A stretch of DNA of 64,000 nt from an uncultured Acidimicrobiia bacterium (GTDB lineage Bacteria; Actinomycetota; Acidimicrobiia; Spongiisociales; JAENVV01). Shown one piece after another: positions 8,427-24,016 of the stretch. How positions within the stretch are numbered: position 1 is the first letter of the stretch; every line of letters begins with the position of its first letter. The notes below the pieces were generated by a model. It searched no databases, was not told the origin of the DNA, and was given only the letters and a program-made list of their open reading frames with translations. Both the position numbers and the translations under genes were made by a program. The stretch is taken from positions 4 to 64,003 of the forward strand of contig CAZTLW010000001.1 in NCBI GenBank assembly GCA_964614585.1, written 5' to 3'.

Positions 8427-9580
8427 CAGAACGCAGCGACCCGGGCCCGGTACCGATCGACGGCGGCGACCACGTCGTCGACGGTGTCGCCGCCGAACAT
8501 CCGCAGGACCTCGTCGGCCAAGGTGATGGCAACGACCTGCTCGGCCACGACGCCCGCCCGGGGCACCGCGCAGACGTCGCTGCGCTCCCGGAAGGCGACG
8601 TCCGGTTCCTTCGTCGCCACGTCGACGGTGCGCAACGGACGCATGACGGTGGAGATCGGCTTCATGGCCGCCCGCACCCGCAGGGGCTCCCCGGTGGTCA
8701 TGCCGCCCTCGGTGCCGCCCGACCGGTTGGTGGCCCGGGCGAACCCGTCGCCGTCGGGGAGGATCTCGTCGTGGGCCGCCGACCCGCGCCGGCGCGCCGT
8801 CTCGAAGCCGTCGCCGATCTCGACCCCCTTGATGGCCTGGATCGACATGAGGGCGGCCGCGAGGCGGGCGTCGATCTTGCGGTCCCAGTGCACGTGGCTG
8901 CCGAGACCGGGCGGCAGGCCGTGGACGACCACCTCCACGACACCGCCCAACGTGTCGCGATCGGCCTTGGCGGCGTCGATTGCCGCCACCATCGCCGCCG
9001 AGGAGTCGGGGTCGAGGCACCGCACCGGGTCGTCGTCGATCGCGTCCTGACTTCCCCGCTCGGGCACCAGTTCGCCGGGTGCGGTCACGTCGCCGATGGC
9101 GACGACATGGCCGAGGATCTCGACGTCGATCGCGGCGAGCAGTTGGCGGGCGATGAGGCCGACCACCGTTCGGGCGGCGGTCTCGCGGGCCGACGCCCGC
9201 TCGAGGATGTCCCGGGCGTCGTGGGTGTCGTACTTCTGCATCCCGACGAGGTCGGCATGGCCGGGACGGGGTGCCGTCAGGGTCCGGCGGGCCTCGCCGC
9301 CGGGATGGGGGGACATGTCCTGCTCCCAGCGCGGCCACTCGGTGTTGCGGACCAGGACGGCCACCGGGGAGCCCAGCGTGCGGCCGAAGCGGACCCCACC
9401 GAGGATCTCCAACTCGTCGCGTTCGAGCTTCATCCGGTTGCCGCGACCGTGGCCGAGGCGCCGCCGGGCCAGTTGGTGGGCGAGGCCGTCGACGGTCACC
9501 TCGAGACCGGCAGGGACGCCCTCGACGATGGCGACGAGTCCGGGCCCGTGCGATTCGCCGGCGGTGAGGTAGCGAAGCAT
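8426..9580 (-). CDS. aroC: chorismate synthase AroC
   Basis: 384 aa, MLRYLTAGESHGPGLVAIVEGVPAGL...GRSSARETA-like motifs. aroC-aroK-aroB order as in actinobacteria. Confidence 0.92.
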   Translation of the reverse strand: MLRYLTAGESHGPGLVAIVEGVPAGLEVTVDGLAHQLARRRLGHGRGNRMKLERDELEILGGVRFGRTLGSPVAVLVRNTEWPRWEQDMSPHPGGEARRTLTAPRPGHADLVGMQKYDTHDARDILERASARETAARTVVGLIARQLLAAIDVEILGHVVAIGDVTAPGELVPERGSQDAIDDDPVRCLDPDSSAAMVAAIDAAKADRDTLGGVVEVVVHGLPPGLGSHVHWDRKIDARLAAALMSIQAIKGVEIGDGFETARRRGSAAHDEILPDGDGFARATNRSGGTEGGMTTGEPLRVRAAMKPISTVMRPLRTVDVATKEPDVAFRERSDVCAVPRAGVVAEQVVAITLADEVLRMFGGDTVDDVVAAVDRYRARVAAF

Positions 9581-11750: not shown

Positions 11751-11777
11751 CCGAGGCCCCGGGGCATCGCCCCGGGG
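11749..11777. terminator. bidirectional intrinsic terminator-like hairpin between convergent genes
   Basis: gaggccccgggg-catcg-ccccggggcctc: 12-bp GC stem with a 5-nt loop, immediately after the hydrolase stop. A second hairpin ggccgg-tgaag-ccggcc follows at ~11804-11820. Confidence 0.6.
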
Positions 11778-11822
11778 CCTCGTCTCGATACTCGGTACTC
11801 GGTACGGCCGGTGAAGCCGGCC

Positions 11823-12353
11823 TCACTTCAGGATCGACTGCCCGACACTCGCTTCGAAGGTGTTGTCCCCGAACTGGAACACACCCGAGGCGGTCGACCC
11901 GTCATCGGACGGGGTGAGCGAGACGACCTTGAAGTTGCCGGCGAAGGTGTCGCCGACCCCGACGGTGTACTCGACGTTGTCGACCTGTACGACCGCCCGG
12001 GGCACGCCGTCCACCTCATTGACGGACACGAGCCCGAAGGTCAGGCGGTCGCCGGGGTCGGTGGCGCCACCGTCACCGCCATCCGACACGAGTGGTCGGA
12101 ACGGGTCGCGTGGCTGGGCCACCTGGATCGACGTCGAGATCCGGACGCCTTCGCTGAGCGCCGCCGCCGGGGCGGCATCGGCCACCACCGTCTCGGCGTA
12201 CGCCCCGTCGAGGTTCCCGATCGCGGGGGTGTCGGCGCCCAGGACCGTCGGGGCGACGGCCCACCAGGCGGCGGCGAATCCGACCCCGATCAGGAGGATG
12301 GCGAGGGCTGTCGCCAGACCCGAGCGAGGCCGAGGGTTTGCATGCGCTGCCAT
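11823..12353 (-). CDS. pilP: PilP-like type IV pilus assembly protein
   Basis: MAAHANPRPRSGLATALAILLIGVGFAAAWW (signal anchor) ...RDPFRP (PilP-type motif). ATG sits immediately after the pilO stop and is the last gene of pilMNOP. The Arg/Pro-rich N-terminal extension of the ORF was rejected. Confidence 0.6.
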   Translation of the reverse strand: MAAHANPRPRSGLATALAILLIGVGFAAAWWAVAPTVLGADTPAIGNLDGAYAETVVADAAPAAALSEGVRISTSIQVAQPRDPFRPLVSDGGDGGATDPGDRLTFGLVSVNEVDGVPRAVVQVDNVEYTVGVGDTFAGNFKVVSLTPSDDGSTASGVFQFGDNTFEASVGQSILK

Positions 12354-12354
12354 C

Positions 12355-13041
12355 TCAGCCTCCATTCGTTTCCGCCGAGGCACCCTCGGCTTCGTCGACG
12401 GCGTCCTCCGTGTCGGAGGTGGCGTCGTCGGTGGGCGGATCGGCGTCGGACATGCCGTCCCCGCCCGTCCCGAGATCGCCTCCGGGCACGTCGACGACCG
12501 GTGCCGCAATGTCACCCGTGGTGAACGCCGTCGCCTGGATCGTCACGGTGAGCTCGACCGTGTTGTCCTCCACGGCCGGCGAGAACGCCGCCGAGTCCAG
12601 ACGGATCAGCCGGTCGAGGTCCTCCATGCCATACAGGTAGCCGAGGAGCTCGAAGTACTGGCCGGTCACCGAGACCGTCGTCTGGATTTCGTTGTAGCCG
12701 CCCTCGTCGTTCGGCGCCGGGGTGCCGAACGACGCCCCGTTCCAGGTGACGGCCGATTCCGTCGCCAGCGTCTCGAGGGCATTGATGAGCTCGCTCTGGG
12801 ATGGGCTCGCCGGGATCGACGCCTCGAGCTCGCCGACGGCGTCGATGTATTGGAGCTCGGCCTCCTGGATGCGGAGCAGCTCATTGCGCTCGGCGGTCAG
12901 CGCCGCCTCCCGCTGCTGTTCCGACTCCGTCTGGGCGGCGATCTCGTTGGTGTTGTCGATGATCGGGGAGATCACGAGGAACCAGAACCCGGCGGCGACG
13001 AGGATCGCCAGCAGGGTCCCGAGTAGCAGTCGGGCTCTCAT
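12355..13041 (-). CDS. pilO: PilO-like type IV pilus assembly protein
   Basis: MRARLLLGTLLAILVAAGFWFLVISP (single TM), coiled-coil region, acidic C-terminus. Position between pilN and pilP. Internal ATG at 13041 abuts the pilN stop. Confidence 0.7.
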   Translation of the reverse strand: MRARLLLGTLLAILVAAGFWFLVISPIIDNTNEIAAQTESEQQREAALTAERNELLRIQEAELQYIDAVGELEASIPASPSQSELINALETLATESAVTWNGASFGTPAPNDEGGYNEIQTTVSVTGQYFELLGYLYGMEDLDRLIRLDSAAFSPAVEDNTVELTVTIQATAFTTGDIAAPVVDVPGGDLGTGGDGMSDADPPTDDATSDTEDAVDEAEGASAETNGG

Positions 13042-13664
13042 TCGGCCACCTCCGGGATCCGGGTCTCGGCCCGGTCGGACAGGGCCCCACCGGTGATCGA
13101 GGTCGTCAGGTTCCAGGCGACGAGGCTCGCCTCGTCGTCCTCGTTCTGGAGCACGGATGCGGCCCAGGCCCCGGTCACCGAGTCCCAGTCCTGGGAGTCG
13201 AGGGTGAGGAGCCACGACGAGACGTCCGGGTAGTCGAACCCGGAGCCGGCCATGGCGACGCCGCCATAGACGCCGGGCGCCTCCTCGGTCGGGACCCCGG
13301 CGGTGATCGACAGCGACTCCATCCAGACCCGCTTGTCGGAGATCATCCGGCCGAAGTCGCCCAGCAGGCGGCCCCAGGCGACGTCTGCCGCCAGGGCGTG
13401 CCGGACGCGGTCGGCGCCCTGGTCGTAGTCATCACGGAGTTCCCGATAGGGCTCGAGTGCGGCGATCTCCGCCTGGAGTTGGGCGTTCTGGGCCACCTGG
13501 GCGTCGTACTCGGCCTGGGCCGTTGTCTCCTGGCCCTTGAAGAACATGAACACGGCGCCGAGGAGGGCGAGGTAGGCGATGGCCACGAAGGCCGTGCCGA
13601 TCCACCCTCGCCGGGCCTTCTGGGCCTCGGCTCGCTCCTGGGGCAGCAGGTTGATCTTCGACAT
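13038..13664 (-). CDS. pilN: PilN-like type IV pilus (fimbrial) assembly protein
   Basis: MSKINLLPQERAE... INLLP hallmark plus TM helix. Its ATG overlaps the pilM stop (ATGA); an alternative start 5 codons upstream is possible. Confidence 0.75.
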   Translation of the reverse strand: MSKINLLPQERAEAQKARRGWIGTAFVAIAYLALLGAVFMFFKGQETTAQAEYDAQVAQNAQLQAEIAALEPYRELRDDYDQGADRVRHALAADVAWGRLLGDFGRMISDKRVWMESLSITAGVPTEEAPGVYGGVAMAGSGFDYPDVSSWLLTLDSQDWDSVTGAWAASVLQNEDDEASLVAWNLTTSITGGALSDRAETRIPEVAE

Positions 13665-14746
13665 CAGACGAGCCCCCATTCGGCCAGGCCCACCGCCACC
13701 GGCAGCACCGGCTGGGCATGGGCGAGTTGTTCGTCGCTCAACCCCGTCTTGCCGACCTGGACGGACTCCCCCAACAGCTTCACCGGTGTGACGGGCATGT
13801 CGAGGGCCATCCCCATCCGGGTGGCGAGGTGTGGGAGTCGGGCAGCGTTGCCGCTGATCATGAGTTCGCCGACGGCGGCGTCGGCCGACGAGGAGTTGTA
13901 GAACTCCAGCGTCCCGCGAATCTCCTCGATCAACTGGGCCGCCTGTTCGGTGAGGATGTCGCGGGCCCGGTCGTCGGGCATGGACGACGCACCGAAGACG
14001 GCGCCCGGGTCGGCGTGGACGCCCACCCGCCGCTTGACCTCCTCGGCCTCCTCGGGAGCGATCCCGAGTCCGGTCGACAGTGCCCGGGTCATGTCGTTGC
14101 CGCCGATCGGGATGAGGCGCAGGAAGCGGAGAGTGCCGTCCTTGGTGACGATCACCTGGGTCATCCCGGCGCCGAGACTGACGACCGCCTGGGGGGCGTC
14201 CCCGAGCGGGATCCGGGCCCCGAACACCGATCGCACGAGGGCGAACGCCTGCAGGTCGACCGCGTCGACGCGGACACCGGCGGACTCGACGACGCCGAGG
14301 AACTGGTCGATCATCTCCCGTTGGGCGGCGACGACGAGGATGGCCCGTCGGGACTCCTCACCCTCGCCGCCGGGGATGTCCTCGAGCGGCACGAAGTCGA
14401 GGATCGCGTCCTCGGTCGCCATGGGGATGTGCTCGCCGACGTGCTGGGGCAGCGAAGCCCGGAGGGCCTCGTCGCTCATGTCGGGGACCTCCACCCGGCG
14501 GACGATGATCCGCTGGTTGGCGAGTCCCATGACGACGCCCTTCTTGGGTAGCTTCGACGACTTCCAGAGGCGCGAGACGGCGTCCGCCACCACGGCCGGG
14601 TCGACGATCTCACCGCCTTCCACGGCCCCCTTGGGGAGGCCGACCTCCCCGTACTTGCGGAGCACGGGGGCGCCCTTCTTGCCTCCTTGCAGCACGGCAG
14701 CCCTTACGGCGCTCGTGCCGATGTCGAGGCCGACTGTGGCAGTCAT
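13664..14746 (-). CDS. pilM: type IV pilus assembly protein PilM (actin-like ATPase fold)
   Basis: 360 aa, MTATVGLDIGTSAVRAAVL... PilM/FtsA-like family. Heads a pilMNOP operon with overlapping stops and starts. Confidence 0.85.
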   Translation of the reverse strand: MTATVGLDIGTSAVRAAVLQGGKKGAPVLRKYGEVGLPKGAVEGGEIVDPAVVADAVSRLWKSSKLPKKGVVMGLANQRIIVRRVEVPDMSDEALRASLPQHVGEHIPMATEDAILDFVPLEDIPGGEGEESRRAILVVAAQREMIDQFLGVVESAGVRVDAVDLQAFALVRSVFGARIPLGDAPQAVVSLGAGMTQVIVTKDGTLRFLRLIPIGGNDMTRALSTGLGIAPEEAEEVKRRVGVHADPGAVFGASSMPDDRARDILTEQAAQLIEEIRGTLEFYNSSSADAAVGELMISGNAARLPHLATRMGMALDMPVTPVKLLGESVQVGKTGLSDEQLAHAQPVLPVAVGLAEWGLV

Positions 14747-14882
14747 GCCCTCCTCCTGGGTTCGGTCGCGTTCAGGGTCACACGGCTCCGTACATGGGTG
14801 TAATTACCGTTCTGTGATTTCGGAGCGTAGTGGGTGGGTCCGATCGCACCAACGATCGGGGACCCGGCGTCGCGGGATCCGC
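14747..14882 (-). promoter_or_regulatory. putative pilMNOP promoter / 5' leader; also holds a hairpin after the pilD stop
   Basis: Comparatively AT-richer tract gtgtaattaccgttctgtgatttcgg. SD aggaggag precedes the pilM ATG on the minus strand. Hairpin ccgatcg-ttggtg-cgatcgg lies just downstream of the pilD stop. Confidence 0.35.
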
Positions 14883-15695
14883 TCAGCCGAGATAGAGGTC
14901 GAGGAGCTCCGTGCCCGCCACGGTCGCCACCCATGCGGCGACGATCATCGGCGGCCCGAAGGCGAGGTGGTCCTTGCGGCCCCGCCGGCGCAACACCAGC
15001 AGCACGATCGCCGCCAACCCGCCGATCAGGAACGAACCGAATATCGCCACGCCCACCGAGCCGAGCGCTTCGAGCGCTCCCACGGTCGGCTGGCGCACCT
15101 GGAAGGCCACGAAGAGGCCCAACAGGAACGAGAGCTTCACGTCCCCGAAGCCGAAGCCGCCCGGTACCGCGAGGGCCAGGACGAGCATCACCGCGAAGTA
15201 GAGCGCTGCCCCGGCGAAGGCCCACCCCAGCCGGTCGGCGGTCGTCGAGGCGAACGACCCGGCCACCAGCAGCAGCGTCGCCACCACGGTCCCCGGGTAG
15301 ACGATGCGATTCGGCAGTCGGTGCGTGTCCAGGTCGGTGAGGATCAGCGCCACCGTCATCGAGAGCGCCCAGAGGTGGGCGGGCAGCTCCCAGCGGAAGC
15401 CGATGAGCAGCGTCGCCGCCGCCCACAGCAGGCCGGTCGCCAACTCGACCGCCGGGTAGCGCCACGAGATCGGCGCCCGGCAGTGACGGCACTTCCCCAC
15501 CAACAACAACCAGCCGACCACCGGCAGCAGGTCGATCGGCCCGATCGCGTGACCGCAGGCGGGACAATGGGAGCGTCCCATCACCGAGCGGCCGAGCGGG
15601 ATCCGGTAGGCCACCACGTTCACGAACGAGCCGGTCGCCAGGCCGAAGAGGCCCATCGCCGTCGGCCAGAACCAGAGGGGCAGGTCGGCGGTCAT
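14883..15695 (-). CDS. pilD: prepilin peptidase PilD (A24 family aspartic peptidase / N-methyltransferase)
   Basis: 270 aa, N-terminal CPACGH...CRHCRAPI zinc-binding cysteines, multiple TM helices, GFGDVKL-type motif. Confidence 0.85.
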   Translation of the reverse strand: MTADLPLWFWPTAMGLFGLATGSFVNVVAYRIPLGRSVMGRSHCPACGHAIGPIDLLPVVGWLLLVGKCRHCRAPISWRYPAVELATGLLWAAATLLIGFRWELPAHLWALSMTVALILTDLDTHRLPNRIVYPGTVVATLLLVAGSFASTTADRLGWAFAGAALYFAVMLVLALAVPGGFGFGDVKLSFLLGLFVAFQVRQPTVGALEALGSVGVAIFGSFLIGGLAAIVLLVLRRRGRKDHLAFGPPMIVAAWVATVAGTELLDLYLG

Positions 15696-15907
15696 CGGCC
15701 GCGCACCCTAGGGGGGCGTCCGGTCGCGCCGACGCCTTTGGGTCGGTCGTCGCCGTGGTCGCCTCGAGGTCGTGGTGGTGCATGCGTTCCGCTCATTCGC
15801 CGGGCCTCCCAACCCACGAGTGGGTATCGGAGCAAGTCGCGAAACCTTGAGGAGGAACCCTGCCGGGCAGGACTGCGGAACCGCACGACCACCGAGCTCG
15901 GGTCTCG

Positions 15908-15958
15908 GCGGCCCGGGGCAACCGCCAGACGCGAACCGCCCCGGGCCGGTTGGCCCGG
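15908..15958 (-). terminator. intrinsic terminator-like GC hairpin(s) downstream of pilA1
   Basis: cggcccgggg...ccccgggccg 10-bp stem, and ccgggcc-ggtt-ggcccgg perfect 7-bp stem, within 100 nt after the pilA1 stop. Confidence 0.5.
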
Positions 15959-16002
15959 GGCGAGTTCCGTGGTCCCGTGGTTCCGCGGTTCGAGTCGTGT
16001 CG

Positions 16003-16476
16003 CTAGTCCCATCCGCCGACGCACTCGGCGAGGGTGTCGAGCGACGCTCCTCCGGTGAGCGACCGGCCGAAGCGGGTGCCGGTGTTGGAACCGCTCACCT
16101 CGTCGGCGAGGCAGTACCACTCACCCGACTCACTGGCGGTCAGGAAGATGACTGCCTGGTCGGCGGTGCCATCGGTGTTCGGCAGGATCAGGAAGCCGAC
16201 CTGGTCGTCGGCCGGGGCATTGCCGGCCACGAACTCGAGGTTGGCGTGGACGTCGTCGAGGTCGGCGACGGCGAAGCCGTAGTCCTCCTCGTCGGTGTAG
16301 TAGACGCGGGCGGCGGTGAGCGCATTTCGCAAGTCGCTCTGGGCCGACCGGTCCTGGGCTCGGACGCGGGCTCCAAGGAAGACCGGGATGGCGATCGCCA
16401 GGAGAATGGCGATGATCAGGACGACCACCATCAACTCGATCAGCGTGAAGCCCTCGTCCCGCTTGATGCGGGCCAT
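16003..16476 (-). CDS. pilA: type IV major pilin (PilA-type), prepilin with class III signal peptide
   Basis: MARIKRDEG|FTLIELMVVVLIIAILLAIAIP: prepilin cleavage/methylation motif (G-FTLIE). C-terminal Cys pair (disulfide loop). 157 aa. Confidence 0.9.
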   Translation of the reverse strand: MARIKRDEGFTLIELMVVVLIIAILLAIAIPVFLGARVRAQDRSAQSDLRNALTAARVYYTDEEDYGFAVADLDDVHANLEFVAGNAPADDQVGFLILPNTDGTADQAVIFLTASESGEWYCLADEVSGSNTGTRFGRSLTGGASLDTLAECVGGWD

Positions 16477-16548
16477 GGGTTCCCCTCACTCTGGGTTGTC
16501 GAAGTGACCATCGGCCGTGGCGGCCGATTCCTTTAGCCCGAACGCGTC

Positions 16549-16576
16549 GAGGGCGGGGGCCGAAGCCCCCGCCCTC
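16549..16576 (-). terminator. intrinsic terminator hairpin after pilA2
   Basis: gagggcgggggc-cgaa-gcccccgccctc: perfect 12-bp GC stem with a 4-nt loop, 25 nt downstream of the pilA2 stop. Confidence 0.65.
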
Positions 16577-16600
16577 GGACGGTCTAGCTGATGGGTCGGA

Positions 16601-17101
16601 CTACCAGGAGGCGCCGTTGCACTCGCCGGCGGTGTCGACATCGACGAGTGCCGTCTCGCTCGAGGCGAAGAACGTGCCGGAACCGGCACCGGTCGCCGTC
16701 TCGTTGATGCAGAACCAGGTCCCCGACGCCGACTGCTTGGCGAAGGTGATCTGCTGGCGATCGGTACCGGCAACGCTCTCGACCGCATAGCCGACGTTGT
16801 CGGCATCGGACGCAGCGATGGCCACGAACTGCAGGCTCGGCTCGATCGCCTCGAGCTGGGCCACGGTGACGTCGGCCCCAGCGCCGTCCGAGAAGTCCTC
16901 GGTGTCCGTGTAGTGCACCTTCGCCGCCGTGAGGGCGTTCCGAAGGTCCGACTGGGCGGCCCGGTCCTGGGCACGCTCACGGGCACCGAGGAAGGTCGGG
17001 ATGGCGATGGCAATCAGGATGGCGATGATGAGCACCACGACCATCAGCTCGATGAGGGTGAAGCCCTCATCCTTCTTCAGCTGGTTGCGGATCCACGACA
17101 T
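16601..17101 (-). CDS. pilA: type IV pilin paralog (PilA-type), prepilin
   Basis: MSWIRNQLKKDEG|FTLIELMVVVLIIAILIAIAIP... N-terminal 40 aa nearly identical to pilA1, with a C-terminal Cys pair. ~166 aa at the C-terminal end of ORF 16601..17887; the rest of that ORF is antisense to pilC and was rejected. Confidence 0.88.
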   Translation of the reverse strand: MSWIRNQLKKDEGFTLIELMVVVLIIAILIAIAIPTFLGARERAQDRAAQSDLRNALTAAKVHYTDTEDFSDGAGADVTVAQLEAIEPSLQFVAIAASDADNVGYAVESVAGTDRQQITFAKQSASGTWFCINETATGAGSGTFFASSETALVDVDTAGECNGASW

Positions 17102-17343
17102 GTTGTCGTACTCCTTTGTTTGCGTATGGGCGTTGGCGCCCCTTCTCCGATGGTGGATATCGGGGCCGGAGCGCCGGTTCTTGAGGACTTTTCTTCGACG
17201 CTCCGTGGTCGAAGGACCACGCAGCAACCCGACGCGAGACCACGGGATCCGGCATGGGCGCCGGTACCCGATACCCGAGACCGCGCCACGCGCCGGGGCC
17301 CCGACCGATCGGCCGGGGCCCCGTCCGTCGCAGGCGCCAGCGC
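17102..17343 (-). promoter_or_regulatory. pilA2 promoter / leader region (242-bp intergenic)
   Basis: Largest intergenic gap in the pil cluster. SD aggag lies 7 nt before the pilA2 ATG. A separate terminator after pilA2 implies independent, probably high-level transcription of the pilins. Confidence 0.4.
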
Positions 17344-18567
17344 CTACTGGACCAGGTTGACGATGTTGAACATCGGCAGGTAGAGGGCGATGAGCATGCC
17401 GCCGACCACGCCGCCGAGCACCACGATGAGGAGCGGCTCGATGAGGCTCGTGAGCCCCTCGACCATCGTCTCGACCTCGTTGTCGTAGAACTCGCCGATC
17501 TTCTCGAGCATCGTGTCGAGGGCGCCGGTCTCCTCGCCGACGGCCACCATCTGGACGACCATCGGCGGGAAGATCTTCCGCTCGGCCATCGGCTTGGCGA
17601 TCGACTCGCCCTCCGAGACCGAGGCCCGGGAGGCCATCACGGCTTCCTCGACCACGGCGTTGCCCGAGGTCTCCGCCACGATCTCCATGGCCTGGAGGAT
17701 CGGGACACCGCTCTTGGTGAGGGCGGCCATCGTCTGGGCGAATCGGGCGAGTGCGGACTTGTGGATGAGCTTGCCGAAGATGGGCATGCGGAGCTTGATG
17801 CTGTCCCAGGCGTAGCGGCCGCCCTCGGTCTGCTTCCACCGCCGGAACACGACCCAACTCACGATCCCACCGAGGACGGCGACCCACCAGAACGAGGTGA
17901 GGAAGCCCGAGATGGCCAGCAGGATCTGGGTGGGCACCGGCAGCGACGCCCCACCGAGGTCGGCGTAGAGGCCGTCGAACATCGGGACGATGAAGATGAG
18001 CATGGCGGCGGTGATCAGCACCACGAGCACCGCCACGGCCATCGGGTACATCATCGCCGAGCGGATCTTGTTCTTCAGCGCAACCTGGGCCTCGAGCGTG
18101 TCGGCGAGGCGGAGCAGGGAGTCGTCGAGGAGGCCGCCCGTCTCGCCGGATCGCACCATCGAGACGTAGAGCTTGCTGAACACCTTCGGGTGGGCCTCGA
18201 GGGCCTGGCTGAGGCTCTTGCCCTGCTCCACGTCCGTCTTCACGCCGAGGATCACCTCGGCGAGTGTCGTGTTCTCGGTCTGCTCGGCGAGGATCGAGAG
18301 CGCCCGCAGCAGCGAGAGACCCGACGCGATCATCGTGGCGAACTGGCGGCTGAAGACCGCCACCTCCTTGGCGGCCACCCGGTCGGTGATCCCGGGGATG
18401 CGGACCTCGCCGCTCAGCCCCGCCGCATCGGTCTCCTCGAGGGTGACCGGCTTGAGCCCCTTCTGGGCGAGCTCGCGGGCGGCCGCCTCGGCGTTGACGG
18501 CCGACACCTTCCCGTTCTTGACCCGGCCCTTGTCGTCCTGGGCCTTGTAGGCGTATGTCGTGGCCAT
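17344..18567 (-). CDS. pilC: type IV pilus inner-membrane platform protein PilC (GspF family)
   Basis: 407 aa, two GspF-type repeats, ...MMYPMAVAVLVVLITAAML...PILQAMEIVAETSGN... Confidence 0.9.
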   Translation of the reverse strand: MATTYAYKAQDDKGRVKNGKVSAVNAEAAARELAQKGLKPVTLEETDAAGLSGEVRIPGITDRVAAKEVAVFSRQFATMIASGLSLLRALSILAEQTENTTLAEVILGVKTDVEQGKSLSQALEAHPKVFSKLYVSMVRSGETGGLLDDSLLRLADTLEAQVALKNKIRSAMMYPMAVAVLVVLITAAMLIFIVPMFDGLYADLGGASLPVPTQILLAISGFLTSFWWVAVLGGIVSWVVFRRWKQTEGGRYAWDSIKLRMPIFGKLIHKSALARFAQTMAALTKSGVPILQAMEIVAETSGNAVVEEAVMASRASVSEGESIAKPMAERKIFPPMVVQMVAVGEETGALDTMLEKIGEFYDNEVETMVEGLTSLIEPLLIVVLGGVVGGMLIALYLPMFNIVNLVQ

Positions 18568-18577
18568 GGGCTACCTC

Positions 18578-20170
18578 CTAGGCGACGCGTCCGAGCAGGC
18601 GCCGCAGGTCCTCGATGTTGGTGCAGCGCTCGACTGCGGTGTCGAAGTCGATGACGTTCTGGCGGACCAGGTGCGCGAGCGACTGGTCCATCGTCTGCAT
18701 GCCGTGCTTGCCGCCGGCCTGCATCGCGGTGGTGATCTGGTGGATCTTCGCCTCCCGGATGAGGTTCCGGATCGCCGGCGTCGCCAGCATCACCTCGGTC
18801 GCCACCGCCCGCGAGCGGCGGTCACGCGTGGGCAGGAGCTGCTGGGTGACGATCGCCTGGATCGTCGCGGCCAACTGGACCCGCACCTGCGACTGCTGGT
18901 GGCTGGGGAACACGTCGATGATCCGGTCGATCGACTGGGGGGCGTCCTGGGTGTGCAGGGTGGCGAACACGAGGTGGCCGGTCTCGGCGGCGGTCAGCGC
19001 GGTCTGGATCGTCTCGAGGTCGCGCATCTCGCCCACGAGGATCACGTCGGGGTCCTGGCGCAGGGCGTGCTTGAGGGCGGCGCCGAAGTCCATGGTGTCC
19101 GCACCCACCTCGCGCTGGTTCACCAGCGCCCGCTTGTGGGTGTGGACGAACTCGATCGGGTCCTCGATCGTGAGGATGTGGCACGACCGCCGCAGGTTGA
19201 TCTGGTCGATGATCGATGCCAAGGTCGTCGACTTGCCCGAACCGGTCGGCCCGGTGACGAGCACGAGCCCGCGGGGATACTCGGCAAACCCGTCGAGCAC
19301 CTTCGGGAGGCCGAGCTCCCCGAGCGGCTTGACCACCTCGGGGATGGCCCGGAAGACGGCGCCGACGGCGTCGCGCTGGAAGAAGACGTTCATCCGGAAG
19401 CGGGCATGGCCGGGCACGGGGTGGGAAGCGTCGAGTTCGAGCGTGTTCTCCAGCGTCTCGCGCTGCTTCTCGGTGAGGATCGAGTAGATCATGGCCCGCA
19501 ACTCGGCCGGGGTGAGGACGTCGTAGTCCTCCAGCGCCGTGAGGTGCCCATTGATGCGCACGATCGGCTTGGTGCCGGCGGTCAGGTGCAGGTCGGAGCC
19601 GGCCCGTTCGAGCAACTCGAGGAGCAGCGTGTTCGGATGGACCCGGGGGATCTCGTCCTGGCGGGCCGCGGCGATGCGTTCGGCGTCCCCGCCGACCCCG
19701 GGGGGGAGTTCGACGCCGAAGATCCCGTCGATCGCCTTCTCGATGGCTCGCGCCGGGGCGACGGCGACCCGGATGCCACACCCGGCCCGTGCCTCCACCC
19801 GGTCGAGGACCTCCTCGTCGTAGGGGTCGGCGACGGCCACCTTCAGCTCGTTGCCGACCATCTCGATCGGCACGACCTGGAGGGCGCGGCAGGTGTCGGC
19901 GTCGAGGCGGTGGACGATGTCGGGGGCGAAGATGATGCCCTCGAGGTCGACGTACTCGAGGCCCACCCGGGCGGCGAAGACCCGGACGAGGTCCGCCTCG
20001 AGCACCAGGCCCTCGGAGACGACGAGCTCGTCGAACGAGGTGCCGGTCTCCTCCTCGAGGGCGAGCAGTCGCTCGAGTTGGTCGCGCGAGAGGAGACGCT
20101 GGTCGACCAGCAGTTCGCCGAGGGTTCGTGAGTGGTTCGCCATGTCCCGTTGCTCCTTCGTCCGTACCAA
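18578..20170 (-). CDS. pilT: twitching-motility retraction ATPase PilT with N-terminal MshEN/T2SSE_N-like domain
   Basis: C-terminal region carries Walker A GPTGSGKSTT, IEDPIEF, and AIRNLIREAK (PilT/PilU signature). The N-terminal ~170 aa has tandem RTLGELLVDQRLLSRDQLERLL / FDELVVSEGLVLEADLVRVFAARVGL motifs resembling MshEN. Start may be the ATG at 20143. Confidence 0.85.
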   Translation of the reverse strand: MVRTKEQRDMANHSRTLGELLVDQRLLSRDQLERLLALEEETGTSFDELVVSEGLVLEADLVRVFAARVGLEYVDLEGIIFAPDIVHRLDADTCRALQVVPIEMVGNELKVAVADPYDEEVLDRVEARAGCGIRVAVAPARAIEKAIDGIFGVELPPGVGGDAERIAAARQDEIPRVHPNTLLLELLERAGSDLHLTAGTKPIVRINGHLTALEDYDVLTPAELRAMIYSILTEKQRETLENTLELDASHPVPGHARFRMNVFFQRDAVGAVFRAIPEVVKPLGELGLPKVLDGFAEYPRGLVLVTGPTGSGKSTTLASIIDQINLRRSCHILTIEDPIEFVHTHKRALVNQREVGADTMDFGAALKHALRQDPDVILVGEMRDLETIQTALTAAETGHLVFATLHTQDAPQSIDRIIDVFPSHQQSQVRVQLAATIQAIVTQQLLPTRDRRSRAVATEVMLATPAIRNLIREAKIHQITTAMQAGGKHGMQTMDQSLAHLVRQNVIDFDTAVERCTNIEDLRRLLGRVA

Positions 20171-20216
20171 GTGTCGGTCGCCGAGTCGCCTACCTTGAGG
20201 GGCGACTCCGGCCGAC

Positions 20217-21899
20217 TCAGACCGTGACCCGGAGGACCTCCTCGAGGCTGGTGTCGCCCGCGGCCACCTTGCGGAGCCCGTCGACGCGCAGCGGCGTCAT
20301 GCCCTGCTCGAGCGCCTTGTGGGTGAGCGCCTCCGTGGTGGCGTGCTGGACCACCATCCGCTCCACGTCCTCGGTCATCGTCATGAGTTCGTGCACCGCC
20401 ATGCGTCCCCGGTAGCCGGTGCCGGCGCACGCCGTGCAACCCACCGCCCGAAAGATGGTGGCGTTCCCGCCGGGGTCGACCACGGCCGGGTCCCACCCGA
20501 TGCGGTCCAGGGCGTCCTGGGTGGGCTCGTGCGGCTCCTTGCACTTCGTGCACAGGCGCCGGGCGAGGCGCTGGGCGAGCACGGCGTCGAGCGCCGACCC
20601 CACGAGGAACGGCTCCACGCCCATCTCGATGAGGCGGCTGACGGCGGCAGGCGCCGTGTTGGTGTGGAGGGTCGACAGCACCAGGTGACCGGTCAGCGCC
20701 GATTCGATGGCGATGTTGGCCGTCTCGAGGTCCCGGATCTCGCCCACCAGCATGATGTCGGGGTCCTGGCGGAGGAAGGAGCGGAGGGCGTTGGCGAAGC
20801 CGAGCCCCGCCTTGCGGTTGACCTGCACCTGGTTGACACCGGCGAGCCGGTACTCGACGGGGTCCTCCACGGTGACGATGTTGCGCTCGGCGTCGTTGAG
20901 CACGTTGAGGGTGGCGTACAGCGTCGTCGACTTGCCGGAGCCGGTGGGGCCGCACACGAGGATCGTGCCGTAGGGCCGGCGAAACGCGTCCTGGTAGCGC
21001 TCGAGGTTGTCGTGGTGGAAGCCGAGATCGGTGAGGTCCAGCATTGCCGTCGAGTTGTCGAGGATCCGCATGACGACCTTCTCCCCGTAGATCGTGGGGA
21101 GGGTGGAGACACGGAGGTCGACCGACCCGCTGGGGGTCTTCACCGAGATGCGGCCGTCCTGGGGACGACGACGCTCGGCGATGTCGATGTCGGCCATGAT
21201 CTTCAGGCGGGACACCACCCCGGCGAGGAGCCGGCGATTGGTGCGCATCACCTCGTGGAGCACACCGTCGATTCGGTAGCGGACGCGGACGTCGTGGTCG
21301 CCGGGCTCGACGTGGATGTCGGAGGCGCCATCGCTCACTGCTTTGAGGATCACCTGGTTGACGAACTTGACGATCGGGGCGTCCGCGGACGCGGCCTCGA
21401 CCGCGGCCAGGTCCTCCACGTCGATGCCGTCCTCCGACGACCCGACGAAGTCGCTGACGGCGTCCTCGAGCGAACCGAGGCGCTTCACGACCGCATCGAT
21501 GTCGGGCTTCATCGCCACGTGCAGGTCGATCGATCGCCCGGTGGCGGCCTGGATGTCGTCCTTGGCGAGGATGTCGTAGGGGTTGGCGGTGGCGACGAGC
21601 AGCTTCTCGCCGTCGAAGGCGTAGGGGATCGCCTGGTGCTTGCGAGCCAACGGCTCCGGCAGGAGGGCGGCGGCAGCGGGGTCGACGGTGATCTCGCCGA
21701 GGTCGACGAACTGGTAGCCCATGTGCTTGGCGATGACCCGAACGAGCGTCTTCTCGTCGACCAACGACTCCGCCACGACGTACTTGGACAGGGTCATGCC
21801 TGCCGTCTCGGCCGCGTCGGCGGCCGAGTACAACTGGTCGTAGGTGAGCAGGCCCTCCTCGATGAGGACGGCTGCGACACCGGCCTGTTCCTCGGTCAT
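20217..21899 (-). CDS. pilB: type IV pilus assembly (extension) ATPase PilB (GspE family)
   Basis: 560 aa, N-terminal T2SSE_N-like region (LIEEGLLTYDQLYSAADAAETAG), Walker A GPTGSGKSTT, VEDPVEY, tetracysteine CTKC...CTAC motif. Confidence 0.9.
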   Translation of the reverse strand: MTEEQAGVAAVLIEEGLLTYDQLYSAADAAETAGMTLSKYVVAESLVDEKTLVRVIAKHMGYQFVDLGEITVDPAAAALLPEPLARKHQAIPYAFDGEKLLVATANPYDILAKDDIQAATGRSIDLHVAMKPDIDAVVKRLGSLEDAVSDFVGSSEDGIDVEDLAAVEAASADAPIVKFVNQVILKAVSDGASDIHVEPGDHDVRVRYRIDGVLHEVMRTNRRLLAGVVSRLKIMADIDIAERRRPQDGRISVKTPSGSVDLRVSTLPTIYGEKVVMRILDNSTAMLDLTDLGFHHDNLERYQDAFRRPYGTILVCGPTGSGKSTTLYATLNVLNDAERNIVTVEDPVEYRLAGVNQVQVNRKAGLGFANALRSFLRQDPDIMLVGEIRDLETANIAIESALTGHLVLSTLHTNTAPAAVSRLIEMGVEPFLVGSALDAVLAQRLARRLCTKCKEPHEPTQDALDRIGWDPAVVDPGGNATIFRAVGCTACAGTGYRGRMAVHELMTMTEDVERMVVQHATTEALTHKALEQGMTPLRVDGLRKVAAGDTSLEEVLRVTV

Positions 21900-21927
21900 C
21901 GTCGTTCTCCCCAGCCCGGCCCCGGCG

Positions 21928-23190
21928 TCAGTCGCCGAGGGAGCTCAGTTCCTTGGCGAGGAGGCCCTTGGAGCGTCGCCTGAGCAGGTTCGGCAGGCCC
22001 CCGTTGGACTCTTCCTCGACGGCGGGTTCGTCGTCGGCGTCCCCGTCGTCGTCGACGGGCTCGTCGGCGGGCTCGTCGGCGGGCTCGTCCGCGTCCCCGT
22101 CGGCGTCCCCGTCGACCGCCTCGGCGTACTCGCCGGAGGCATCGTCGTCGACGCCCAGTTGAGCGAGCGCGTCCTCTTCGTGCATGGCCGCCACGTCGTC
22201 GTCGATCTCGTCGAGGGCCTCGTCCTGGTCGTCCTCGTCGTCGGCCCGGATGCCGGGCTTGGGGGCGTAGCCCTTGAGGCCGAAGTCGACGCCGGAGTCC
22301 TCGTCGCCGTCGCCCGCCCCTTCTGCGAGCGGGAAGGGCTCGGCGTCCATCAACGGCGGCTCCTCCTCGGGTTCCGGCTCGTCGGTGGCGGCGATGGACA
22401 CCAACTCGTTGGTCCAACCGGTGGGCCCCTCGGCCGACAGCGGGTCCTCGTCGACCTCGACGCCGGGGAACCGGTCCAACCCGCCGGTGGCCCGGCCGGC
22501 CCGGACGTTGTCGCCGACCCAGGCCAGCCCGCGGCTCACGAACGCGGCGACCTTGGAAGCGGCGTCGAACTCGCTCTCGCCGGTGTGCGACGACAGGCGC
22601 TTGACGGTGGTCCCCGACGCGATGAGGCCGAGCAGGGACCATTCGTCCTGGTTCAGCTCGACGAACTCGCTGCCCTCGGGCAGGCTCTCGGCGAGGTGGA
22701 TGCGGGCCGTCATGGACGGCACGATCTCGCGGATGGCGTTCCAGGCCCGGAGCCGCTCGTCGACCTCGTCGAGGGTGTCGTCGATGGAGAGTTCGGTGCC
22801 GAGGCGGATCGAGGTGGTGACGCCCTCCTCGAACTCGAACGAGCCCTGGCGGCGGCGCATGATCTCGACGAAGGCGTCGACCGTGAGGGAGCGGACGGCT
22901 CGGTCGTAGTCGAGCGGCGAGACCTCGTCCGTGAGGAGCTCGTCGGCCGACACGTCACCCGAGGAGACCTGCTCCCAGCCGTCCCGGTCCAACAACCCCC
23001 CACCGACGAGGCGGGACTTCACGGCCCGCTCGTCGCCCGCGCAGGCGAACAGCAGTCGACCGCCCTGCAAGTAGGCCCGCATCTCCTGGTCATCCGCCTT
23101 CACGAGCAACAGGCCCGTCTGTCCCGAGCGGCCGAGCAGGCGCAGGACCTCGGGCAGGGGGAATGAATCCAGGGTGCCCGACAACGCCAT
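21928..23190 (-). CDS. DUF4388 (PATAN-like) domain protein with long acidic C-terminal tail
   Basis: N-terminus MALSGTLDSFPLPEVLRLLGRSGQTGLLLV matches the DUF4388 signature. The C-terminal ~150 aa is extremely D/E-rich. First gene of the pil cluster. Confidence 0.7.
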   Translation of the reverse strand: MALSGTLDSFPLPEVLRLLGRSGQTGLLLVKADDQEMRAYLQGGRLLFACAGDERAVKSRLVGGGLLDRDGWEQVSSGDVSADELLTDEVSPLDYDRAVRSLTVDAFVEIMRRRQGSFEFEEGVTTSIRLGTELSIDDTLDEVDERLRAWNAIREIVPSMTARIHLAESLPEGSEFVELNQDEWSLLGLIASGTTVKRLSSHTGESEFDAASKVAAFVSRGLAWVGDNVRAGRATGGLDRFPGVEVDEDPLSAEGPTGWTNELVSIAATDEPEPEEEPPLMDAEPFPLAEGAGDGDEDSGVDFGLKGYAPKPGIRADDEDDQDEALDEIDDDVAAMHEEDALAQLGVDDDASGEYAEAVDGDADGDADEPADEPADEPVDDDGDADDEPAVEEESNGGLPNLLRRRSKGLLAKELSSLGD

Positions 23191-23230: not shown

Positions 23231-24016
23231 TCAGGAGCCCCTTGAGTGCTTTGCCGCGGCGGCCATCGCCTCGACGGGCGGCTCGGCAGCGAACCAGAGG
23301 GCGAACGCGGCTGCGGCCTGGCCGACGAGCATGTCGAGCCCCCAACCGATGGGGAGGCCGTTGGCTCGGGCGCGGCTGACGGCCGGCGTCACCTCGGGTG
23401 CGTAGACCATCTCGAACAGGCCGGCAGCCTCTTCCACGACCCCGTCGGGCAGGTCGTCGCCGGCCATCCCGATCGGGGTCGCGTTGACGACGACAGCACC
23501 GGTGAGTGGCTCACCCCACGCCAGTGCGCCGGCCGCTCCCAGCGAGTCGAGGGCCGCGGCGGCCTCGGGGCGGCGGGCGGCCACCCAGACCTCGTGCCGG
23601 CCGGCGAGGACGTCCACCGCCGCGCGAGCCGCTCCCCCGGCCCCAAGGACCAGCACCGGGGCGTCGATGGGCAGCCCACCCCTCGCCCAGGCGTGCAGCA
23701 CGCCCGCGCCGTCGGTGGCGTGGCCGACGACCCGACCGCCGTCGACGTCGAGGGTGTTGAGCGCCCCCAGCCGCGCCGCCACCGGGTCGAGGCGGTCGAC
23801 GAGGCCGACGGCGGCGGACTTGTGGGGCATGGTCACGTTGGCCCCGTCCAGACGCCCTCGACGCAGGTCCTCGATGGCGGCGGCGAGCCCGGCGGGGTCG
23901 ACGTCGCGACGGCCGTAGGTGGCGTCGAGGTCCAACTCGGCGTAGGCGGCCTCGTGGATGGCGGGTGACAGGGAGTGGGCGACCGGATGGCCGAGGACGA
24001 CGAACCGCCGGGTCAC
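23231..24016 (-). CDS. aroE: shikimate dehydrogenase AroE
   Basis: 261 aa, MTRRFVVLGHPVAHSLSPAIHEAAY...NVTMPHK...VLGAGGAARA. Confidence 0.9.
   Translation of the reverse strand: MTRRFVVLGHPVAHSLSPAIHEAAYAELDLDATYGRRDVDPAGLAAAIEDLRRGRLDGANVTMPHKSAAVGLVDRLDPVAARLGALNTLDVDGGRVVGHATDGAGVLHAWARGGLPIDAPVLVLGAGGAARAAVDVLAGRHEVWVAARRPEAAAALDSLGAAGALAWGEPLTGAVVVNATPIGMAGDDLPDGVVEEAAGLFEMVYAPEVTPAVSRARANGLPIGWGLDMLVGQAAAAFALWFAAEPPVEAMAAAAKHSRGS

Follow-up and report, generated by a model that had tools for sequence, protein, structure and literature searches.

For type IVa pili (T4aP) in Actinomycetota, no systematic functional analysis was found in the literature that we searched, zoospore pili being the exception among those pili of this type in the phylum that have been functionally analysed. 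For this phylum, PMC6916266 describes Tad-type pili only. T4aP do occur in monoderm phyla, Actinobacteria included, with several losses of the secretin (PMC6668835), and absence of the secretin PilQ is expected in a monoderm (PMC6668835; PMC6916266); the absence of PilP from monoderms has been called 'logical' (Pelicic, 2019; PMC6916266). T4aP genes are already known from metagenome-assembled genomes (MAGs) of Acidimicrobiia, as the accessible part of one report states (PMC12008989): in UBA5794, genes of the pilABCMOT type, recorded as KEGG-type presence, occur in free-living and not in sponge-associated genomes. In that part of the report, no mention was found of an aroE-aroC position, a retained pilD, a PilP-like gene, a MshEN-PilT fusion or a relA-linked triad of minor pilins.

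The locus studied here lies in a window of 64,000 nucleotides from an uncultured member of the Acidimicrobiia. On the minus strand, from 23190 to 11823, an 11-kb block is flanked by aroE (23231..24016, minus strand; Shikimate_dh_N and SDH_C domains), the upstream boundary of the interval, and by aroC (8426..9580, minus strand; Chorismate_synt, 396 bits), its downstream boundary. Gene calling by GC3 frame plot combined with Pfam and NCBIfam scans placed the ends of the block at the start of a PatA_N gene (23190) and at the stop of a PilP-like gene (11823), with the order PatA_N/DUF4388, PilB, PilT, PilC, two pilins, PilD, PilM, PilN, PilO and PilP-like, which reproduces exactly the pil gene order and end coordinates of a first-pass annotation of this DNA. 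The complete-looking T4aP gene set that it had placed between aroE and aroC was also confirmed by HMMs and motifs: PilM, PilT, PilC, PilO, PilD, the N-termini of the pilins and the PatA_N protein score above curated cutoffs, whereas PilB (645.6 bits) falls slightly below the TIGR02538 equivalog cutoff of 675.65, and for PilN and the PilP-like protein no dedicated HMM gave a match. The backbone genes are present, with aroE, mltG, ruvX, alaS and rarA on one flank and carB, carA, pyrC, pyrB, pyrR, nusB, efp, aroB, aroK and aroC on the other, but the host belongs to the Acidimicrobiia and not to the Corynebacteriales. The PatA_N, pilB, pilT and pilC genes are separated by 10-73 nt on a single strand, gaps of 124-307 nt surround the pilin genes and pilD, and the junctions between pilM, pilN, pilO and the PilP-like gene measure -16, -4 and +1 nt, pilN sharing 16 nt with the end of pilM and 4 nt with the beginning of pilO. 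ATP-binding and catalytic motifs of the Pil proteins are intact, and from its sequence the 11-kb block is a genuine cluster of type IVa pilus genes that appears to be intact.

The first gene of the block (21928..23190, minus strand) encodes a protein of 420 amino acids with an N-terminal PatA_N (PATAN/DUF4388) domain (PF14332, E 4.9e-16, residues 4-151) and an acidic, low-complexity C-terminal tail. This gene also stands upstream of pilB in two related loci (L081 and L082), and it still adjoins pilD in 16 relatives from which the other genes of the block are missing. In Synechocystis, the PATAN domain binds PilB1 and the N-terminus of PilC (10.1101/2021.06.11.447907), and the protein encoded here may regulate the motor formed by PilB and PilC. 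PilB, the extension ATPase (20217..21899, minus strand; 560 amino acids), matches the full profile of PF00437 (T2SSE) with 468.5 bits, and its translation contains the Walker A sequence GPTGSGKST, a His box and a CxxC...CxxC motif. PilC, the platform protein (17344..18567, minus strand; 407 amino acids), contains two T2SSF domains (222 bits) and scores 380-423 bits against the NCBIfam models for PilC and GspF.

The retraction ATPase PilT (18578..20143, minus strand) measures 521 amino acids from its ATG, and an alternative TTG start at 20170 would extend the range to 521-530. Residues 181-518 match TIGR01420 with 476.8 bits (cutoff 319.1), among PDB entries Geobacter PilT matches best (5zfq, E 1.5e-116), and the AIRNLIRE motif, Walker A and B and the His box are all present. 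With its length and an MshEN-type N-terminal domain of about 175 amino acids, the protein is therefore not an ordinary 350-residue PilT. The MshEN fold (PF05157, cutoff 23.1) was detected with 60.6 bits in residues 70-154 of PilT, and similarly with 66.9 bits in residues 61-146 of PilB. The MshEN-PilT fusion is found in all 12 relatives with a visible pilT and throughout the 120 top-ranking database clusters, and no description of it was found in the literature retrieved on these pili. Both scores against NF053729, the model for the c-di-GMP motif (35.8 bits, for PilT, and 21.7), are below the cutoff of 38, and the tandem motif is degenerate in both ATPases of the window, PilT retaining 8 and 9 of the 11 constrained positions and PilB at most 8 of 11, so that control by this second messenger is doubtful in the window genome. 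In PilB of more distant relatives, 11 of 11 positions are retained.

Two pilin genes follow, one for PilA2 (16601..17101, minus strand; 166 amino acids, N_methyl 34.5 bits) and one for PilA1 (16003..16476, minus strand; 157 amino acids, N_methyl 35.1 bits; cutoff 21.2). Both match TIGR02532, PilA2 also by motif scan, and the products are 53% identical (pairwise BLASTP). Each carries a class III signal peptide, DEG/FTLIELMVV, with Gly-1, Phe+1 and Glu+5, and a hydrophobic alpha1-N helix (a slash marks the end of the leader here and below): the sequence is MSWIRNQLKKDEG/FTLIELM (KKDEG/FTLIEL) in PilA2 and MARIKRDEG/FTLIELM in PilA1, and both proteins have a pair of cysteines at the C-terminus. 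The prepilin peptidase PilD (14883..15695, minus strand; 270 amino acids) matches PF06750 (A24_N, 107.6 bits) and PF01478 (Peptidase_A24, 41.6 bits) and possesses the four-cysteine N-terminal domain as well as both catalytic Asp residues.

PilM, the actin-like cytoplasmic component (13664..14746, minus strand; 360 amino acids), was recognized by PF11104 (E 1.7e-43) and TIGR01175 (179.9 bits, cutoff 133). The next frame (13038..13679, minus strand; 213 amino acids) encodes a bitopic protein that gave no match to a PilN HMM in the Pfam and NCBIfam scans and is called PilN-like from its N-terminal INLLP motif and its position. It matches positions 355-476, the PilN-equivalent part, of the Amuc_1101 PilM-like family (E 2.3e-6), positions 6-346 of which match PilM, and pilN is kept between pilM and pilO in 21 loci. 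PilO (12355..13041, minus strand; 228 amino acids) matches PF04350 with 32.6 bits (cutoff 22) and, weakly, GspM. The last gene of the block (11823..12353, minus strand) encodes 176 amino acids, with a transmembrane helix, the invariant motif QPRDPFRPL and a disordered linker ahead of the C-terminal beta domain, a small beta-sandwich of the HR type whose fold resembles GspC-HR more than PilP. There were no Pfam or NCBIfam matches for this protein, none of 15 homologues scanned individually matched the PilP HMM, and at the N-terminus the transmembrane helix was found and no lipoprotein signal (lipobox) of the PilP kind. In view of the missing PilP or GspC HMM match and lipobox, we file this fourth protein as PilP/GspC-HR-like by fold and position and not as a family member. 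A perfect GC-rich hairpin, GAGGCCCCGGGG-CATCG-CCCCGGGGCCTC (11753..11781), separates the PilP-like gene from a convergent hydrolase gene and is a probable terminator; an equivalent hairpin lies 3' of the PilP-like gene in the relative L002. In agreement with the first-pass annotation, which had reported no PilQ gene in the window, no Secretin domain was detected in any open reading frame scanned over the 64 kb.

No minor pilin is encoded within the pil block; three minor-pilin-like genes are found elsewhere in the window, 10 kb away, at a conserved position. The first (35753..37372, minus strand) encodes a large PilV-like protein of about 539 amino acids with the leader ARDDDG/FSIIESM, and it alone of the three exceeds the TIGR02532 cutoff (19.5 bits, cutoff 16.3). 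The second (35118..35762, minus strand; 214 amino acids) has the leader MSLIRRIHADERG/TTLMEA, and the third (33425..35125, minus strand; 566 amino acids) is a tip minor pilin with the leader MRDLRRDEG/TALITA, no Glu5, a beta-solenoid domain and fold matches to ComZ and GspK. Homologues of the large pilin follow relA in L083 and L084 with leaders DDDG/FTIVE, and the L084 homologue of the small one has the leader RGDGG/FTLIEM; the L084 homologues have canonical leaders.

Some of these matches could be taken to indicate a non-retractile pseudopilus, either of the competence type or of a T2SS-like exporter, in place of a dynamic type IVa pilus. PilB scores 587.8 bits against GspE, the pilins score high on GspG and ComGC models, the tip pilin is like the Thermus competence pilin ComZ, and the fourth gene of the pilMNO group is nearer to GspC-HR than to PilP. 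However, a bona fide PilT with AIRNLIRE is encoded between pilB and pilC, PilM, PilN and PilO are T4aP-specific (PMC6916266), and the cysteine pair in the D-region of the pilins is typical of type IVa pilins. Also, GspL, GspM and GspC-PDZ, GspD and a short ATPase of the ComGA type are all absent from the window. We consider a pseudopilus highly improbable at this locus; DNA uptake by a retractile T4aP, as in Thermus, is compatible with a resident T4aP.

The block had been interpreted as a lineage-specific accessory insertion into the conserved aroE-aroC backbone, and occurrence of the same block at the same position in related genomes had been named as what would refute this. An AroC-anchored scan returned 80 Acidimicrobiia loci, and exactly such an occurrence was found: of the 61 related species that could be scored, at least 22 have the full block, in identical order and at the identical site. 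In the 22 full-block loci, whose AroC is 62-81% identical, the order pilB-pilT-pilC-pilA-pilD-pilMNO-PilP-like lies directly upstream of aroC, and also downstream of aroE in those contigs that are long enough to show it. The arrangement aroE-PatA_N-pilB-pilT-pilC-pilin...aroC was seen in L081 (PilT 72%) and in L082 and L002, which are one MAG (PilT 88%, AroC 81%). Many relatives have a short interval without the block, aroE-pilD-aroC in 24 loci and aroE-PatA_N-pilD-aroC in 16; the Ca. Spongiisociaceae locus L025 is of the pilD-only kind, and such patchy presence is paralleled by the pattern in UBA5794 MAGs, as far as it is given in the accessible part of that report (PMC12008989).

The many short intervals, and a bulk GC content slightly lower in the block (0.69) than in its flanks (0.72), are what a recent horizontal acquisition as an accessory island would have in its favour. 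On the other side, the pil genes have a GC3 of 0.87-0.97, the same as the flanks, and codon usage matches too, so that the proposed check for compositional skew revealed none. No tRNA gene is present in the window, and no integrase or other mobility genes and no border repeats were found. Distances of Pil and housekeeping proteins are congruent (Mantel r = 0.81; none of 2000 permutations reached this value). Through its same-site presence in relatives and its typical GC3 and codon usage the block does not qualify as a genomic island, and a recent insertion is very unlikely indeed. The position of pilD also bears on this question: loci that lack the block still have this gene, which is central in the full block, so that gain of the block would have called for two coordinated insertions, one on each side of pilD. 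At the least, pilD is almost always contained in the interval between aroE and aroC; relatives without the block keep it, sometimes with PatA_N, which indicates an old resident locus that was lost repeatedly. The pil block is thus, judging from these comparisons, very probably a resident, vertically inherited T4aP locus of this Acidimicrobiia lineage; in relatives without pili, the genes on either side of pilD seem to have been lost.

The distribution could also stem from a single ancient acquisition, in which a T4aP set was recruited once around a resident pilD in the ancestor of a large subclade of the Acidimicrobiia, the ancestral interval being aroE-(PatA_N)-pilD-aroC, followed by vertical inheritance and several losses. 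In the deepest clade of the three-protein tree, most loci have pilD only or PatA_N plus pilD, with PilD lacking the cysteine motif, and in the distant locus L080 pilD-M-N-O lies about 4.7 kb from aroC instead of abutting it; both observations would suit this scenario. In other Actinomycetota, a gene for an A24 peptidase is located between aroE and aroC as well, which would also count in its favour. On the other hand, it requires insertion on either side of pilD, or replacement of pilD, and PilD of the full loci is slow-evolving and closest to that of nested pilD-only lineages, as fits loss and not gain. In these nested lineages, PilD is in turn closest to PilD of their pil-bearing neighbours. 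Both catalytic Asp residues of PilD are kept in every locus state, and all 19 of the full loci examined have the complete four-cysteine motif, as opposed to 1 of 24 pilD-only loci, five more of which keep three of the four cysteines. On 100 bootstrapped trees, presence and absence of the block required 6-11 changes (median 9), compared with 18 for the shuffled trait; these are neighbour-joining trees of three proteins, the topology and rooting of which are weak evidence either way. An ancient gain around pilD is unlikely, though less so than a recent one, and long residence with repeated loss remains our preferred explanation.

The gap was also said to contain a divergent MFS transporter and an alpha/beta hydrolase, and both were found as described. 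The MFS_2/GPH-family symporter gene (9643-10998, plus strand) and the hydrolase gene (10995-11750, plus strand), each identified by Pfam and NCBIfam, overlap end to end by 4 nt and are oriented opposite to the backbone. An MFS gene adjoins aroC elsewhere only in the same-species contig L001, which stops before the hydrolase position; the pair is absent from L002 and all other relatives, and alignment of the junction shows the PilP-like gene abutting aroC in L002, the 81%-identical relative. Absence from the same site in close relatives is what is expected of a genomic island, and as read from these alignments the symporter-hydrolase pair is the sole recent insertion at the aroE-aroC site.

When the established roles of the families are combined with the memberships, motifs, fold matches, synteny and co-inheritance observed here, the following machine can be proposed. 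PilD would cleave, and probably N-methylate, the two paralogous major-type pilins and the three minor pilins, and a PilB hexamer would drive the PilC platform for assembly of the fibre. PilM would bind the INLLP tail of PilN, and PilN, PilO and the membrane-anchored PilP/GspC-HR-like protein may make up that portion of the assembly complex which lies outside the cytoplasm. PilT, with its N-terminal MshEN-like domain, would retract the fibre. The motor of PilB and PilC is probably modulated by the PatA_N protein, whose gene directly precedes pilB, and at the tip the ComZ-like minor pilin with its beta-solenoid probably serves as a capping adhesin or DNA receptor. A cell with one membrane only, the usual state in the phylum Actinomycetota, would have no need of a secretin. 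We infer from the sequence that a pilus is made, retracts and binds, and likewise the roles of the PatA_N, MshEN-like and PilP-like parts. Tentatively, the locus might represent a distinct secretin-less T4aP variant in which an HR-fold PilP-like protein joins PilMNO and PilT has gained an MshEN sensor or docking domain. In that case PilP would have a core function independent of the secretin, for example in stabilising PilN-PilO or in spanning the wall, and the regulated step could be retraction and not extension.

These results explain the insertion claim away, the apparent filling of a gap being repeated loss in relatives. One chromosomal site in three states, full locus, PatA_N plus pilD and pilD only, constitutes a natural series that is useful for studying the decay of pilus machines and the reasons for the longer survival of the prepilin peptidase. 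A protein of the PilP/GspC-HR fold without a secretin in the window bears on the role of PilP beyond its link to PilQ, and the conserved MshEN-PilT fusion in this group of uncultured Acidimicrobiia is the remaining useful point.

Compared with PixE and PixG of Synechocystis, the PatA_N protein has the same N-terminal PATAN/PatA_N domain, but no CheY-like receiver was detected in it, its C-terminal half being acidic and of low complexity, and its gene is also kept beside pilD where the site has no pilB. In the competence T4aP of Thermus thermophilus, a diderm with PilQ, GSPII/MshEN domains are located on the extension ATPase PilF, whereas in the window PilT has one too; the ComZ-PilA2 tip of that system has its counterpart in a tip pilin 16% identical to ComZ. 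With the diderm T4aP of Pseudomonas aeruginosa, Myxococcus xanthus and Neisseria the locus shares the same core families, the pilM-N-O-P order with overlapping or abutting frames, a PilT with AIRNLIRE, pilins with a C-terminal disulfide loop and a tip pilin of the GspK/PilX type without Glu5. In contrast to those systems, the window has neither a PilQ secretin nor a pilotin, its PilP-like protein matches no PilP HMM and is anchored by a GspC-like transmembrane helix and not through a lipobox, and its core genes form one block, whereas the diderm loci are scattered. Like the T4aP of monoderm Firmicutes (Streptococcus sanguinis, Clostridium perfringens; PMC6916266), the locus combines PilD, PilB, PilC, PilM, PilN, PilO, PilT and pilins at a single site, lacks a secretin, and has more than one major-type pilin gene and modular or large minor pilins. 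It differs from them in a fourth component of PilP/GspC-HR fold after PilO, the MshEN-like N-domain of PilT, a leading PatA_N gene, minor pilins encoded at a separate locus, and a host from the Actinomycetota, where the experimentally studied pili are of the Tad/type IVc kind.

The window has a G+C content of about 70%, and spurious frames dominated the raw lists of open reading frames, so genes were called from a frame plot of third-position GC and the calls were then tested against Pfam and NCBIfam. This confirmed the gene order of the type IVa pilus (T4aP) block on the minus strand between aroE and aroC, and its end coordinates, 23190 and 11823, proved exact. The block is led by a gene for a PatA_N/DUF4388 protein (21928-23190; PF14332, E = 4.9e-16), followed by pilB (20217-21899; full T2SSE match with 468 bits, plus MshEN), pilT (18578-20143; TIGR01420, 476.8 bits versus a cutoff of 319.1), pilC (17344-18567; two T2SSF domains) and two pilin genes (16601-17101 and 16003-16476), whose products are 53% identical to each other and both carry the leader end DEG/FTLIELMVV (the slash marks the end of the leader). 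Further along lie pilD (14883-15695; A24_N and Peptidase_A24), pilM (13664-14746; TIGR01175, 179.9 bits versus a cutoff of 133), a pilN-like gene (13038-13679; INLLP motif), pilO (12355-13041; PF04350) and a fourth, PilP-like gene (11823-12353), named from fold and position. The junctions from pilM through pilN and pilO to this fourth gene measure -16, -4 and +1 nt, and those of PatA_N, pilB, pilT and pilC 10-73 nt. The flanks agree with the first-pass annotation and read carB, carA, pyrC, pyrB, pyrR, nusB, efp, aroB, aroK, aroC on one side and aroE, mltG, ruvX, alaS, rarA on the other, and an MFS_2/GPH symporter gene (9643-10998, plus strand) and an alpha/beta hydrolase gene (10995-11750, plus strand) lie between aroC and the block. 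Its statement that a PilQ secretin gene is absent also held, as no Secretin domain was present in any ORF scanned across the 64-kb window. A sigma-70 promoter consensus scan of 9400-25300 returned no promoter-like sites and a terminator consensus scan of the same region returned terminator-like sites at chance level, both scans being uninformative for a high-GC organism. The PatA_N protein ends in an acidic low-complexity tail rich in Asp, Glu, Pro and Ala, which makes up its C-terminal half (21999-22340) and is encoded by imperfect 12-nt periodic repeats, and in most relatives only the first 215 or so residues align (in one relative, up to 416).

The block had been read as a lineage-specific insertion into a conserved backbone. 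An AroC scan of one genome per species yielded 80 loci, essentially all from Acidimicrobiia MAGs, of which L001, a contig of the same species, has the closest AroC (97% identical) and L002 the next closest (81%), and all window proteins were placed on these loci by tblastn. Three states of the aroE-aroC interval were found: the full block in identical order (22 loci, partial contigs counted), aroE-PatA_N-pilD-aroC (16 loci) and aroE-pilD-aroC (24 loci). The closed chromosomes OZ244034, OY970200, OZ251578 and OZ246890 are in the pilD-only state. Homologue context look-ups added further loci. L082, found with PilT (88% identical) and belonging to the same MAG as L002, reads rarA-alaS-ruvX-mltG-aroE-PatA_N-pilB-pilT-pilC-pilin...aroC-aroK-aroB-efp-nusB, and L081, on a 1.34-Mb contig and with a 72% identical PilT, shows the same arrangement (rarA...aroE-PatA_N-pilB-pilT-pilC-pilin...aroC...nusB). 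The same block at the same site in relatives, that is, in the 22 loci as well as in L081 and L082, is what the first-pass annotation itself had named as refuting an insertion, and the claim falls. In L081, the gene with a PilM_2 match (within 13033-17481) encodes 559 amino acids and may be a fusion of PilM and PilN; in contrast to nearly all other loci, the L081 interval yielded no gene call with A24 peptidase domains.

Pairwise distances of PilD, PilM and PilN follow those of AroC, AroB and EF-P (Pearson r = 0.81), with none of 2000 Mantel permutations giving as high a value. On a neighbour-joining tree of three proteins, pil-bearing and pil-less species are interleaved, and explaining presence and absence takes a minimum of 6-11 changes (median 9; 100 bootstraps) versus about 18 for a shuffled trait. 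The proposed check of the block for GC or codon skew against its flanks revealed none in GC3 or codon usage: pil genes have a GC3 of 0.87-0.97 and resemble correctly framed housekeeping genes in both respects, a comparison that leaves out the carA, aspS, tgt and thrS rows with their out-of-frame coordinates (GC3 of about 0.73). There is no tRNA gene in the window, and neither mobility genes nor direct or inverted border repeats were found in the interval; the only repeats seen in the search for island signatures were due to pilA1/pilA2 paralogy, pilB/pilT paralogy and the acidic tail of the PatA_N protein. Loss is the more parsimonious reading, since pilD, placed mid-block, is the gene that survives: two deletions account for a loss, while each of the repeated gains would take two coordinated insertions. 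In the nested pilD-only lineages L004, L028, L036, L032 and L025, PilD is closest to that of pil-bearing neighbours. The pil genes might instead have been recruited a single time, deep in the class, around a resident pilD; most of the deepest clade sampled lacks the block and the trees used here are crude, and we nevertheless hold such an ancient recruitment to be improbable. An A24 peptidase gene between aroE and aroC is presumably also present in other Actinomycetota, as with Rv2551c of M. tuberculosis. A table in the literature lists Rv2551c with a mass of 13.8 kDa and four TM segments.

Loss of the surrounding pil genes is also in line with the state of PilD itself. In an alignment of PilD from L003-L080, both catalytic aspartates are kept in all three interval states. 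All 19 full loci keep the four-cysteine motif (CxxC...CxxC) of the N-domain intact, as do 12 of the 16 loci with PatA_N and pilD; among the 24 pilD-only loci it is intact in one, with three of the four cysteines present in five more. PilD appears to persist under altered constraints after pilus loss, a pattern that fits the loss reading.

The gap does hold a recent lineage-specific insertion: it is the 2.1-kb MFS/hydrolase pair (9643-11750), rather than the pil block. The two genes overlap by 4 nt, are oriented against the backbone, and do not occur as a pair in L002 (81% identical) or in any other relative, L001 covering the MFS gene only. In L001 the MFS gene adjoins aroC and the contig stops short of the position of the hydrolase, for which it is uninformative. 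L002 has a GC-rich hairpin behind the PilP-like gene, with aroC coming directly after it. In the window, where the PilP-like and hydrolase genes converge, a perfect 12-bp GC hairpin (11753-11781) separates them, with the hydrolase gene's 3' end right behind it, and since an equivalent hairpin lies 3' of the PilP-like gene in L002, the hairpin predates the insertion.

The pilT product has 521-530 residues instead of about 350. Its core (residues 181-518) is unambiguous by its TIGR01420 score (476.8 bits versus 319.1), has Geobacter PilT (5zfq; E = 1.5e-116) as closest solved structure and contains the AIRNLIRE, Walker A/B and His-box motifs, and residues 1-178 form an MshEN/GSPII-type domain (PF05157, 60.6 bits). 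The fusion is kept in 12 of 12 relatives with pilT visible and throughout the best 120 database clusters, for which NCBI/JGI use the names "twitching motility protein PilT" or "PilT/PilU family". Of the representatives in a 50%-identity library, about ten are MshEN-PilT fusions of colinear layout, and others have a PilT core behind a longer N-terminal extension. Some of these clusters hold PilT-core proteins of 700-1100 amino acids whose N-terminal regions also match the MshEN-like part of the query, which makes N-terminally extended PilT ATPases a wider, apparently unstudied phenomenon. The accessible parts of the MshEN paper (PMC5013675) and of a PilB-cofactor review make no mention of such a fusion. 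As described in those parts of the former, the c-di-GMP motif of MshEN is a tandem, 24-residue motif (PMC5013675). The window PilT matches it at 8 and 9 of 11 constrained positions and scores 35.8 bits with the NCBIfam c-di-GMP motif model, slightly below the cutoff of 38; the window PilB matches at most 8 of 11. As the tandem motif, in its published relaxed form, is unsatisfied in both window ATPases, no binding of c-di-GMP is claimed, and control of PilT or PilB by c-di-GMP was dropped. PilB of more distant relatives (L017, L033, L034, L039, L051, L060) has a canonical motif (11 of 11). The degenerate state of the motif at the PilB N-terminus of the window (21750-21899) and in the close relative L082 suggests that c-di-GMP regulation of PilB was lost in their lineage.

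No Pfam or NCBIfam match was obtained for the product of the fourth gene, and individual scans of 15 homologues gave no PilP or GspC match with E up to 1, the only hits being two weak T2SSB matches; its structure was therefore predicted. The protein has a TM helix and an invariant QPRDPFRPL motif; a disordered linker leads to a conserved C-terminal domain of some 70 residues, whose pLDDT exceeds 90 in an AlphaFold model for which 35 homologues were used. By predicted fold and by position it is PilP-like, and GspC-like through its TM anchor; judged by sequence it is outside the PilP family. Among the best 120 of about 196 homologues, annotation never goes beyond "hypothetical", and those with names are nearly all from Acidimicrobiia MAGs.

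Two ORFs of about 570 residues without Pfam match belong to a three-gene minor-pilin module on the minus strand (33425-37372), just downstream of relA and between relA and the MBL-fold hydrolase/hisS genes, again a conserved housekeeping context. It encodes a PilV-like protein of 539 amino acids (leader DDDG/FSIIESM; TIGR02532 above cutoff, weak PilV/GspI matches), a small protein of 214 amino acids (DERG/TTLMEA) and a ComZ/GspK-like beta-solenoid protein of 566 amino acids (RDEG/TALITA), which lacks Glu5 like GspK/PilX-type subunits. The same relA-to-MBL/hisS position holds homologues in L083, a locus on the contig of the L081 pil block and about 10 kb away from that block, and in L084, where the homologues have the canonical leaders DDDG/FTIVE, GDGG/FTLIEM and RDEG/FGLITA. 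This triad is the probable minor-pilin or tip module of the same pilus. Since it sits at a second locus, the first-pass view that the block encodes a complete pilus machine needs amending: the core gene set is there, and the machine is complete only if 33425-37372 is counted. L084 (7718-15580) has two consecutive triads of 543/226/514 and 659/184/477 amino acids between relA and the MBL hydrolase gene, amounting to a duplicated tip module.

Judging from what is established for these families, PilD would process the two major pilins and the three minor pilins, PilB would power PilC for fibre assembly, and PilT would retract the fibre. PilM would bind the INLLP tail of PilN, and PilN, PilO and the PilP-like protein would form the assembly complex at the outer face. 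A single-membrane cell would need no secretin, and for monoderm T4aP several independent secretin losses were inferred by Denise et al. (PMC6668835). For the PatA_N protein, a role in regulating the motor is plausible by analogy with cyanobacterial PixE, whose PATAN domain binds PilB1 and PilC (10.1101/2021.06.11.447907). The ComZ/GspK-like pilin and its two partners would prime and cap the fibre, and this pilin could be an adhesin or, as in Thermus, a DNA receptor.

The locus is no new kind of system, because T4aP or pil genes have already been reported in monoderm phyla and in Acidimicrobiia MAGs. Type IV pili of Actinoplanes missouriensis zoospores have reportedly been characterised and are mentioned in later papers. 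In surveys, monoderm phyla, Actinobacteria among them, have T4aP gene sets (PMC6668835), and in the accessible part of a study on Acidimicrobiia MAGs, pil genes are listed as present in the free-living and as lacking in the sponge-associated genomes (PMC12008989), a patchiness that agrees with the patchy presence described here. With the insertion claim gone, what remains is a set of features that are conserved, though uncharacterised, in an uncultured group. Compared with described monoderm T4aP, the locus is distinguished by its PatA_N lead gene, by its MshEN-PilT fusion and by a component with a predicted PilP/GspC-HR fold, whereas the absence of PilP in monoderms has been called "logical" (Pelicic, 2019; PMC6916266).
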